From NCBI GenBank assembly GCA_000146465.1, contig CP001951.1: a stretch of DNA of 64,000 nucleotides; one strand, 5' to 3'. Numbering within the stretch: position 1 is the first letter of the stretch; each line of letters opens with the position of its first letter. Positions 32,409 to 55,480 of this stretch are shown one piece after another. The notes beneath the pieces are model-generated. The model ran no database searches. It was not told where the DNA came from and saw nothing but the letters and a program-made list of their open reading frames with translations. Position numbers and translations under genes: made by a program.

Positions 32409-33041
32409 ATGAGTCTTGAGGAAAAGCTAATGAAAAGGCTAGAGGGAGGGATGTTTCGGATACTGAACGACAAGATGTACCATGGAAAGGGCTTAAAGAA
32501 GAGGGACTTGAAGCTATATCATGAGCTGTATGATCAGCAGGTTAAGCGATGGCCAGTTAATCCTCTTGATGTTATTATTGAGAAGATAAAGAAGAAAGGA
32601 AATGGCATGGCGATAGCAGACATAGGATGTGGAGATGCTCGGATTTCCAGGGAGTTTGAAAATGTAATGTCCTTGGATCTGAATCCTTCTCGAAAGGATA
32701 TAATCCGCTGCGATATGAGACAAAGGATCCCTTTAGATGACAAGAGTGTGGACATTGCAGTTTGCTGTTTAAGTATGATGGCTGAGAACATTTCGGTTCC
32801 TATGAAGGAGGTAAACCGGATACTAAGGGAGTCGGGGTACTGGTATATAGCAGAAGTCAAGAGCAGGATACCTAATATAAAGCATCTGGAGAAGAAGTTT
32901 GAGAGCTTTGGGTTTGAAGTTGAGCATACCGACATGTCAAATGCACAGTTTATTCTTTTCGTTTTGAAAAAGAATCTAGATAAGAATCCGAAGAAACTTC
33001 CACCGGTCAGATTGATTCCATGGGTTTACAAGAAGAGATGA
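32409..33041 (+). CDS. RRP8: rRNA-processing protein 8 (Rrp8)-like SAM-dependent methyltransferase
   Basis: A Rossmann methyltransferase with motif I IADIGCGDARIS, an acidic strand SLDLNPS, motif IV region SVDIAVCCLSMMAEN, and YWYIAEVKSRIPNIKHLEKKFESFGFEV resembling the Rrp8 C-terminus. Confidence 0.65.
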   Translation: MSLEEKLMKRLEGGMFRILNDKMYHGKGLKKRDLKLYHELYDQQVKRWPVNPLDVIIEKIKKKGNGMAIADIGCGDARISREFENVMSLDLNPSRKDIIRCDMRQRIPLDDKSVDIAVCCLSMMAENISVPMKEVNRILRESGYWYIAEVKSRIPNIKHLEKKFESFGFEVEHTDMSNAQFILFVLKKNLDKNPKKLPPVRLIPWVYKKR

Positions 33042-33078
33042 AGGTGGAAAGAGGAAACTTGATGTTTACTACCTTTGG

Positions 33079-33495
33079 CTACTTGGCGGAAACTCCGAAG
33101 AAGAAGACAAAAGCTGTTGAATACACCGAGTAGTATATGAAGAACAGGATTGATACAACGATGTCTGGCGTGGTCATAGTGAAGCACTCTCTGCAGTTCT
33201 TGTATCCCATCCTCATTACAAACACATTATTCATGATGATGAAGAATGCCAGGAGGTTCATTATCTTTGCAATAACATGGAGAGCTTAAATTAAAGATAG
33301 CACTTACCATTTATGATTCTAAAATACAGCTTTCCTTTCTTTGCCATTGGTTTTACAAGAGACAGAGCTGTGGAATATGTTATTATAACTATGAGAACCT
33401 GGCTTCCGTAGAAATATCTTGGTGCTAGGGATGCAGTGAGGATCAGTCCGAGGAGCGATGAAATCTTTGAATTAGTAGGGCAAGGCACTTACCAT
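33079..33495 (-). CDS. Small multi-pass membrane protein of about 121 aa, encoded by three exons with two tiny spliceosomal introns
   Basis: Exon 1 is the ATG alone (33495..33493). Intron 1 is 33492..33465 (gtaagtgccttgccctactaattcaaag, 28 nt). Exon 2 is 33464..33308. Intron 2 is 33307..33285 (gtaagtgctatctttaatttaag, 23 nt). Exon 3 is 33284..33079. The splice joins two track ORFs in frame (33291..33488 and 33079..33261). The product is M-ISSLLGLILTASLAPRYFYGSQVLIVIITYSTALSLVKPMAKKGKLYFRIIN-A-LHVIAKIMNLLAFFIIMNNVFVMRMGYKNCRECFTMTTPDIVVSILFFIYYSVYSTAFVFFFGVSAK. Confidence 0.45.
33285..33307 (-). other. Spliceosomal intron of 23 nt (phase 1)
   Basis: Minus strand: AAATG|gtaagtgctatctTTAATttaag|CTCTCC. 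Removing it keeps the upstream exon in frame with the downstream 60-aa ORF. 23 nt is at the minimum of Encephalitozoon intron lengths. Confidence 0.4.
33465..33492 (-). other. Spliceosomal intron of 28 nt immediately after the ATG
   Basis: Minus strand: ATG|gtaagtgccttgccCTACTAATtcaaag|ATTTCA. It has a GTAAGT 5' splice site, a CTAAT branch-like element 3 nt from the 3' AAG, and is almost the same length and sequence as the RPL27A intron. Confidence 0.5.
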
Positions 33496-33645
33496 TTCCA
33501 TCTTGTCTTTGAACATCATTGTGGTCTGGGGTTGGGTGTTTAGATGGTTTGTTGATGCCAAGAAGGGAGGCCATGGTAGCTTGATGGGCTAGAGACAGCA
33601 AGGGTTCCCTTGGACACATTGGGAATGGATGGCTAGAACGGAGAA

Positions 33646-33668
33646 GTAAAAAATATTTCGGGATCCCT
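33646..33668 (+). promoter_or_regulatory. AAAAAATATTT box plus CCC motif upstream of the NDC80 ATG
   Basis: The sequence is gtAAAAAATATTTcgggatCCCtATG. Confidence 0.3.
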
Positions 33669-35303
33669 ATGACTCGGAGATTCACCATGACGCCGAACTC
33701 CAGGAATTCTATTAAGACACCTATTTCAGGGGCGAAGGTTGCTCTATTTCCAAGACACTCTGTAGCGGCTGAGGAGATCAAGAGGAGGGATATGAGGCTG
33801 GTGAGAGAGAAAGGATACAAGCAGCAGTGTGTTGACACTATTTTAGGGTTTTTGATGGAAAATGGATACGATGGACAGATATCACAGAAGATCATGCATA
33901 ACCCGTCTTCGAAGGACTTCCAAAGTATCTTCAAGTTCCTGTATGGATTTGTGGACGACTTTGTGTTCTCCTCAAGGTTTGAGGACGAAGTTGTGAATGT
34001 GATGAAGAATTTGAGGTATCCATATTGCGGGGAGATTACGAAAAGCCAGCTGAGTGCAATAACACCCCACACATGGCCTGTAATTCTAAGCATGTGCAGC
34101 TGGCTAGTGGAGCTGATAAGGCATGGAGCAACTCTTCTCGAGCAGGAGGAAGAGAAGAGTGTTGAGAGCTGTTTCTTTGAGTATGTGTGTGATGGGTATA
34201 TGAGATTTATGGAAGGAGATGAGGATGATGCGGCTCTTGAGGAGGAATTTGAGAGGAAGGTCACAGAGATATACACGGGGATATTTAAGGAGATCGATCG
34301 AAAGAAGGAGGAACTTTCCCGGATTGAGGAGATGATAGGGAAGTCTCGAAGGATGTCTGAAAGCCTTGGAGAGCTGGAGAGAAAGAAGAGAGAGTTGACA
34401 GATGATCTGAACATGCTGATAGCTTCTGAGAAACAGCTTGAGGGGAAGAAGAAGAAGTATCTAGGGGCTATTGAGCGTCTTTGCGAAGATATTGCAAGGG
34501 TTGAGGAGGAGATTGAAAGCCAAAGGGTACAAGAGGAAGGATTGAGGGTTCAAATAACGAAACAGAAGATCAATCCTGAAGACGTAAGGGAGATGAATAC
34601 CGAGAAGATGGAGTTATTTAAGGAGCTAGAAAGAATGAAGCCGGAGAAGGAGGGGCTTATGAGAGAGGTAGGAGAACAAGAAAGAGAAGCACAGGAAAAG
34701 GTTGAAGAGGTTGAGAAGTTGTTTTTTGATCTGAAGGGTCTTCGAGATGAGATTTCATTGAGGATAGTGAAGGACACAAAGGGAGGGGTCCAAGTAGTGA
34801 ATGAGGTAAGCAACGAGGTGTTTGACAACGGAATAGCTTCGGTGATTGTACGTCTTGAAGAGGAGCTAAATGGAAGAAGTGATGTTCTTGTGGCAGGGGA
34901 GATGAACAAAGGTATGCTTGAGGAAGCAAGGGCAGAGAAGGAAGGAATGTCTAGCGAACTAAGCAACAGACTCAAATATTGCAGTGATAAGCTTTTGATG
35001 GCAGGAAAGTTGTATCTGGAGAAGAAGGAGATATCTGAGAACGAGCAAAGGAAGAGCAAGACCGAAATGGAGCTGCTGGAGAACGAACTTCTGAAGCTCA
35101 ATCTGGAGTCCAACACGTCTCTGCTGATGAGTGAGCAGAAGCTACAAAAAGCCAAGATACTTCTTGACAGAACACTCAACACCATAAACTATGAGAGAGA
35201 GGAGATTAGCAAGATGGTGTTTAACTTCTACAACACAGTTGTTGATGTTCATACATTGATCCAGTCACAGGTTGGAGACCTGAGGACCTTACTGAACAGG
35301 TGA
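33669..35303 (+). CDS. NDC80: Kinetochore protein NDC80/HEC1
   Basis: The N-terminal calponin-homology region has the NDC80 pattern (QQCVDTILGFLMENGYD...SSKDFQSIFKFLYGFVDDFVF...LRYPYCGEITKSQLSAITPHTWPVILSMCSWLVELI). It is followed by a long coiled coil. Confidence 0.7.
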   Translation: MTRRFTMTPNSRNSIKTPISGAKVALFPRHSVAAEEIKRRDMRLVREKGYKQQCVDTILGFLMENGYDGQISQKIMHNPSSKDFQSIFKFLYGFVDDFVFSSRFEDEVVNVMKNLRYPYCGEITKSQLSAITPHTWPVILSMCSWLVELIRHGATLLEQEEEKSVESCFFEYVCDGYMRFMEGDEDDAALEEEFERKVTEIYTGIFKEIDRKKEELSRIEEMIGKSRRMSESLGELERKKRELTDDLNMLIASEKQLEGKKKKYLGAIERLCEDIARVEEEIESQRVQEEGLRVQITKQKINPEDVREMNTEKMELFKELERMKPEKEGLMREVGEQEREAQEKVEEVEKLFFDLKGLRDEISLRIVKDTKGGVQVVNEVSNEVFDNGIASVIVRLEEELNGRSDVLVAGEMNKGMLEEARAEKEGMSSELSNRLKYCSDKLLMAGKLYLEKKEISENEQRKSKTEMELLENELLKLNLESNTSLLMSEQKLQKAKILLDRTLNTINYEREEISKMVFNFYNTVVDVHTLIQSQVGDLRTLLNR

Positions 35304-55008: not shown

Positions 55009-55480
55009 TTAATAAGTAATTATCCACTTCCCCCCAACTCTTGTGATCTCTTCTTTTGCTGATGGCGTGAAATACCTGGCTTTGACAACAATCGGCCTTT
55101 CCAAAGGCAGCTTTCCTCCAATAACAATGTGATATCCAAACTCCCTGACATCGATCACAGGAACCTTCTCAACGTTATCCAGGAACTCGTATCTTTGCTC
55201 CTTTGGGATCATCCCCCACAGCCTTGCAGAGCTGATTGGGCGGGCATAGTTCGAGTTCTCCTTCCTGTGGTAAACCCTCATTCCTCTCTTTCCATGGTAG
55301 TCCGGATGGAATCTTGTGAAAAGAGTCTTCATGTGGCTGAATCCTCCTGCCAGCCCTCGGCCTCCAGAGTGTTTTCTATGCTTTCCTACACGTCCATGTC
55401 CGTGCGATACATGCCCTCGCATCTTTCTAGTCTTCTTAACCTTTTCTGCCTTCAAATTAGCTCAGATAGCCACTTACCAT
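55009..55480 (-). CDS. RPL27A: 60S ribosomal protein L27a (uL15) with a 28-nt intron immediately after the start codon
   Basis: Exon 1 is the ATG at 55480..55478. The intron is 55477..55450 (gtaagtggctatctgagctaatttgaag). Exon 2 is 55449..55009. The spliced product [37 protein letters not shown]... matches eukaryotic L27a ([30 protein letters not shown]). The track ORF 55009..55455 starts on TTG inside the 3' splice site. Confidence 0.8.
55450..55477 (-). other. Spliceosomal intron of 28 nt at the start codon of RPL27A
   Basis: Minus strand: AAAATTTTATCCCTGAAATG|gtaagtggctatctgagCTAATttgaag|GCAGAAAAG. It has a GTAAGT 5' site and a CTAAT element 3 nt before the 3' AAG. The upstream AAAATTTT box plus CCC motif is also present. 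Confidence 0.75.

Follow-up and report, generated by a model that had tools for sequence, protein, structure and literature searches.

The locus and its annotated identity

We analysed a 64,000-nucleotide (nt) stretch of contig CP001951.1 (NCBI GenBank assembly GCA_000146465.1), referred to below as the window, and focused on a small three-exon gene located on its minus strand at 33079..33519. This gene is very probably the already annotated Eint_100755 of Encephalitozoon intestinalis, orthologue of ECU10_0805. It lies on chromosome 10 of this species, with RRP8 and NDC80 on either side. The spliced translation starting from the ATG at 33519 was identical, residue for residue, to protein P0001 (Eint_100755, E. 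intestinalis ATCC 50506; 129 amino acids (aa), 100 % identity). An earlier reading of the bare sequence (the original prediction) had considered the gene to be unannotated and its product to be about 121 aa long. When that 121-aa product was used as query, four matches of 129 aa each were retrieved, i.e. Eint_100755, KMI_02g03350, ECU10_0805 and EROM_100680. The last three are annotated orthologues from E. hellem, E. cuniculi GB-M1 and E. romaleae, respectively, and are 66–72 % identical. Eint_100755 and its orthologues are labelled ‘uncharacterized/hypothetical protein’ in the public Encephalitozoon annotation, and literature searches for ECU10_0805 and Eint_100755 found no papers.

The gene order fibrillarin, NDC80, Eint_100755 orthologue, RRP8, Ada3 and RFC is kept in E. 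cuniculi, E. hellem, E. romaleae and a second E. intestinalis assembly; a small gene between RRP8 and NDC80, proposed earlier as a synteny check in related species, is present in the same order in all four species. The flanking genes also match in three further relatives (L006, L008 and L010, from SRA/metagenome assemblies), whose source organisms are syntenic Encephalitozoon/Ordospora-like microsporidia. The comparisons described below were made among seven syntenic taxa, i.e. the four named Encephalitozoon species and these three relatives. In the public coding sequences (CDS) of the four named species, splice junctions exactly match both introns of the original prediction (33492..33465, 28 nt; 33307..33285, 23 nt, phase 1), the coordinates of which were correct. 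The locus is 438–441 nt long in these species, with a CDS of 390 nt.

The gene is composed of three exons of 27, 157 and 206 nt, split by a 28-nt phase-0 intron and a 23-nt phase-1 intron. Its parts and the two neighbouring motifs are as follows, in the direction of transcription.

33528..33531, minus strand: CCCC, a CCC-like motif, 8 nt 5' of the start codon
33493..33519, minus strand: exon 1, 27 nt, ATG ATG TTC AAA GAC AAG ATG GAA ATG, i.e. MMFKDKMEM, as read from the start codon at 33519..33517
33465..33492, minus strand: intron 1, 28 nt, phase 0, GTAAGTGCCTTGCCCTACTAATTCAAAG
33308..33464, minus strand: exon 2, 157 nt, encoding transmembrane segments (TM) 1 and 2 and a basic loop, up to ...KKGKLYFRIIN and the first base of the next codon
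33285..33307, minus strand: intron 2, 23 nt, phase 1, GTAAGTGCTATCTTTAATTTAAG
33079..33284, minus strand: exon 3, 206 nt including the stop codon TAG at 33079..33081, encoding TM3, the NVFVMRMGYKNCREC loop and TM4
33065..33070, minus strand: AGTAAA, an AATAAA variant and probable polyadenylation signal, within the 37 nt that separate the gene from the convergent RRP8

At the 3' end, AATAAA occupies the site equivalent to AGTAAA in E. cuniculi, E. hellem, E. romaleae and L006, and an AAUAAA signal is used in E. cuniculi (PMC2803860). From this comparison, the AGTAAA at 33065..33070 (minus strand) probably acts as the polyadenylation signal of the gene.

At the 5' end, a CAACAAACCA motif at about 33545..33554 (minus strand), roughly 25–35 nt 5' of the start, is conserved in E. 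intestinalis, E. cuniculi, E. hellem, E. romaleae and L006. This motif, a possible promoter element, falls within the 149 nt that separate the gene from the divergently transcribed NDC80. A mechanical open reading frame (ORF) of 323 aa at 33443..34414 (minus strand) runs antisense to NDC80 and reaches, in another frame, the exon 1/intron 1 region; in all likelihood it is spurious. An Rfam scan of positions 32800..33800 gave only one sub-threshold chance match, Spd-sr37 (22 bits versus a gathering score of 45).

Signals and conservation of the two introns

Both introns display the 5' splice site AAATG/GTAAGTG announced in the original prediction, and both end in AAG. Branch-point-like elements precede this 3' AAG by 3 nt in intron 1 (CTAAT) and by 2 nt in intron 2 (TTAAT), which agrees with the YTAAT element reported earlier at 2–3 nt from the AAG and as shared with the RPL27A intron. 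The two short minus-strand ORFs from which the gene had been assembled (33291..33488 and 33079..33261) are both present, and removal of both introns leaves, as claimed, an open frame (366 nt when counted from the ATG at 33495..33493) reading ...RIIN-A-LHVIAK... across the second junction. The 12-mer AAATGGTAAGTG was found in three copies in the 64 kb, all on the minus strand, against a chance expectation of about 0.01 by simple arithmetic; the third copy belongs to the RPL27A intron (55450..55477). The looser pattern GTAAGT...YTAAT...AG (up to ~88 nt) was without significance alone (3 observed versus 1.16 in dinucleotide shuffles), and the case therefore rests on comparative data.

Among the seven syntenic taxa, intron 1 is found in all at the same position and in phase 0, with a length of 25 or 28 nt, and intron 2 likewise in all at the same position and in phase 1, with a length of 23, 24 or 26 nt. 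The length of exon 2 does not vary, being 157 nt in each of them. The GTAAGT is invariant, the branch-point and 3' region is conserved, and the intron interiors have diverged. Retention of intron 1 leads to an in-frame stop after 15 codons in E. intestinalis (14–16 across taxa), and retention of intron 2 to a stop after 65 codons (63–73 across taxa). Taken together, this conservation indicates that the introns are real and old in the clade of these taxa. A reduced microsporidian spliceosome would remove both of them, yielding an mRNA translated into a 129-aa integral membrane protein.

Two further observations concern intron length. Length variants are mostly 3 nt apart, i.e. 25 versus 28 nt for intron 1 and 23 versus 26 nt for intron 2, with a single case of 24 nt. 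This 24-nt intron 2, that of L010, is translatable and has no in-frame stop.

Distant homologues were sought with a profile among 1.84 billion representatives and, in a second search, with a word index. The proteins retrieved (110–151 aa) are encoded by single uninterrupted ORFs and are collinear with the spliced protein across the exon 2–exon 3 junction; the 23-nt intron 2 is therefore independently validated, and with it the in-frame joining of the two short ORFs. Both introns are kept in the seven syntenic taxa and absent from the more distant homologues. One candidate was discarded from this set: P0010, a 1224-aa protein made of tandem repeats with GWSNCQTCTSY, matched the family profile (E = 1.8e-09) through four short stretches and was regarded as a repeat-driven false positive.

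Prokaryote-style gene calls fragment or misread the orthologue in the three relatives (L006:4001-4183, L008:4001-4168 and L010:317-664). Among the predicted proteins, P0024 corresponds to exon 3 only, P0006 runs from exon 2 into intron 2, and P0023 reads straight through the 24-nt intron 2. The expectation that ORF-based pipelines would misannotate such a gene was borne out by these Logan and JGI calls.

In favour of the gene model, all 37 splice junctions known in E. cuniculi were confirmed by RNA-seq (Grisdale et al. 2013; PMC3629993). Two of them had first been found by comparing four Encephalitozoon species, and these two comparison-derived introns may be those of ECU10_0805. Against it, ECU10_0805 is absent from the expression table of 1985 genes given in the same study. 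For E. intestinalis, we infer actual splicing from conservation and annotation. As for the distant homologues, they come from contigs of SRA/metagenome data (Logan, JGI) and from one ‘UNVERIFIED_CONTAM’ entry in a louse assembly, and their taxonomic placement is tentative.

A small four-helix membrane protein

Pairwise ratios of non-synonymous to synonymous substitution rates (dN/dS) ranged from 0.15 to 0.31, and pairwise differences over the coding sequence summed to 473/332/868 by codon position, values that indicate purifying selection on the protein. The hydropathy profile comprises four hydrophobic segments. An AlphaFold2 run with four sequences was too uncertain (predicted local distance difference test score, pLDDT, of 57) and was repeated with 15 family sequences, giving a pLDDT of 89 and a predicted template modelling score (pTM) of 0.80, with helices at residues 2–26, 30–52, 54–83 and 100–122. 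The protein is thereby confidently predicted to form a four-helix transmembrane bundle. The residues N81, V82, F83, C92, C95 and Y113 are invariant across the family and most of them belong to a signature, NVF[VL]x-x-x-G-x-x-x-C-x-x-C, that extends over the end of helix 3 and the loop leading into helix 4. Hydropathy, AlphaFold2 and the family alignment recovered both features of the original prediction, its four hydrophobic helices and its CxxC motif.

We infer the topology, the role of the cysteines and the cellular location as follows. The TM2–TM3 loop KPMAKKGKLYFR is strongly basic and, according to the positive-inside rule, would face the cytosol together with the N and C termini. The opposite side, luminal or external, would then hold the short TM1–TM2 loop and the conserved TM3–TM4 loop (NVFVM-x-x-G-x-x-x-C-x-x-C), whose Cys pair might form a disulfide or serve to bind a metal or a partner.

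The search of the spliced product against profile collections, suggested earlier as a check, gave no family match in Pfam or among the PDB profiles. At E ≤ 10, no Pfam match was obtained for the 121-aa product, and 11 relatives gave only scattered noise, which included DPM3 (once, E = 4.8, far below cut-off) and PMP22_Claudin (once, E = 0.013). PDB sequence-profile searches with alignments of 4 and 11 sequences returned chance matches only (COX Vb-like, E = 0.64; OSTM1, E = 4), and Foldseek against PDB gave a best E-value of 0.23, with no specific fold match. With low confidence, we propose a structural or accessory role for the protein, as a small tetraspan membrane subunit acting in the secretory pathway or at the plasma membrane. 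Its family would be a fast-evolving one, probably confined to microsporidia.

Alternative readings and comparison with known systems

The first exon admits another start. In the original prediction, the initiator was the ATG immediately before intron 1 (33495..33493), exon 1 was just this ATG, as in RPL27A, and the product was 121 aa long. GTAAGT is indeed immediately preceded by an ATG in this gene and in 5/7 taxa, the RPL27A gene of the window truly has an ATG-only exon 1, and a transcript beginning between 33519 and 33495 would use the ATG at 33495..33493. However, in L006 and L010 intron 1 is preceded by ATC, which cannot be the initiator there, whereas the upstream ATG (33519) is invariant in the seven syntenic taxa and, lying 24 nt 5' of the proposed one, is where all four public annotations start. 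Between the two ATGs, the eight codons conform to the pattern M-[ML]-x-[KRQ]-D-K-[MLI]-E and vary mainly at third positions (summed pairwise differences for codons 2–9 of 32/10/47 by codon position, six of the seven taxa). Moreover, a CCC(C) run, i.e. a CCC-like start-proximal motif, is found 4–9 nt 5' of the annotated ATG in 6/7 taxa, and in the window it precedes 33519 and not 33495. We thus consider an ATG-only exon 1 very unlikely in this gene; the comparison points to a 27-nt exon 1 with its start codon at 33519 and to a 129-aa product identical to Eint_100755. An ATG directly before GTAAGT is insufficient as proof of an ATG-only first exon.

Two other readings concern intron 2 and the nature of the protein. 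If intron 2 were not spliced, or were 43 nt long, the locus would yield either a pair of distinct small proteins (...GKCYL* and M-NLLAFF...) or a shortened product. Both halves are indeed ORFs in their own right, and average splicing levels are low in E. cuniculi (PMC3629993), so that unspliced transcripts probably coexist with spliced ones. Against this, the 43-nt option, as read from the sequence, shifts the frame into an early stop, whereas an intron of 23–26 nt keeps phase 1 and the frame in seven taxa. The 43-nt option would also delete ALHVIAKI, a conserved segment that has counterparts in the intronless homologues and aligns, for example, with ALYVLSRI (P0009) and AAYVIAKI (P0023). The 43-nt intron and the two-gene alternative were excluded on this ground, and the whole reading retains next to no probability. 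The protein itself might be a highly divergent member of a small endoplasmic reticulum membrane family, namely DAD1/Ost2, DPM2/DPM3 or a translocon accessory subunit, as the original prediction had suggested. Its size and multi-pass character are similar, DPM3 did appear in 1/11 relatives, and in microsporidia protein divergence often defeats sequence searches. Nevertheless, DAD1/Ost2 (PF02109) was absent from the Pfam matches (E ≤ 10) of the protein and of the 11 relatives, DPM2 gave no match, and DPM3 gave nothing beyond its single hit at E = 4.8; none of these suggestions, translocon subunits included, found support in the Pfam, PDB-profile or Foldseek searches. DAD1/Ost2 and DPM2/DPM3 were rejected as candidates, and we judge a membership of this kind extremely improbable.

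We therefore return to the annotated three-exon gene Eint_100755. The gene and both its introns are real, ordinary and already known. Since GenBank/UniProt already carry this gene model, both introns included, for four Encephalitozoon species, its discovery value is little; the reading of sequence only did, nonetheless, correctly recover a three-exon structure that ORF-based callers break up or misinterpret. A conserved, uncharacterised family of small membrane proteins, recognisable by a clear signature, NVF...CxxC, includes this product and could be curated. A broader view, which we hold to be unlikely, would be that of an uncurated, probably microsporidia-wide family of 110–150-aa tetraspan proteins, whose invariant outward NVF...C-x-x-C loop would have a redox, metal-binding or partner-docking role, perhaps replacing a membrane component lost in genome reduction, or else that of introns kept over a long time, which give a truncated product when left in the transcript, acting as a splicing-efficiency throttle on expression.

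Compared with known systems, the gene studied here does not differ from Eint_100755, and both its identity and its position between NDC80 and RRP8 place it in the same orthologous group. At the protein level, the nearest candidates for comparison are tetraspan four-helix membrane proteins (MS4A/CD20/FcεRIβ, MARVEL/synaptophysin, sarcospan and claudin/TARP); to place the protein in MS4A/CD20, MARVEL or claudin/PMP22, a likeness in fold or sequence would have to go beyond the generic geometry of a four-helix bundle. In the VKOR/DsbB thiol oxidoreductases, the CxxC is located inside a TM helix or at its end and is accompanied by a second Cys pair in a loop. This candidate was rejected, as no Pfam match was found and the protein has only two conserved cysteines, in a polar loop.

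At the intron level, the likeness to Encephalitozoon mini-introns is close. These are GT-AG introns with a strict GTAAGT and a YTAAY a few nt before the 3' AG, features shared by both introns described here. Reported intron lengths in E. cuniculi range from 22 to 76 nt, and many of its introns reside in non-ribosomal genes, a few genes having two (PMC3629993); introns in non-ribosomal genes, which had been put forward as notable for a gene with two of them, are thus documented in Encephalitozoon. With 28 and 23 nt, both introns of Eint_100755 fall within this range, and intron 1 is near the 5' end of the gene. They resemble mini-introns in their boundaries, branch-point motif and length, they restore the frame when removed, and their position and phase are shared by orthologues. 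In the same window, the 28-nt intron of RPL27A (uL15; 55450..55477, minus strand) stands directly after the ATG, i.e. cctgaaATG/GTAAGTGGCTATCTGAGCTAATTTGAAG/GCAGAAAAG. It is of the same design, but follows the ATG alone, whereas intron 1 of Eint_100755 follows nine codons.
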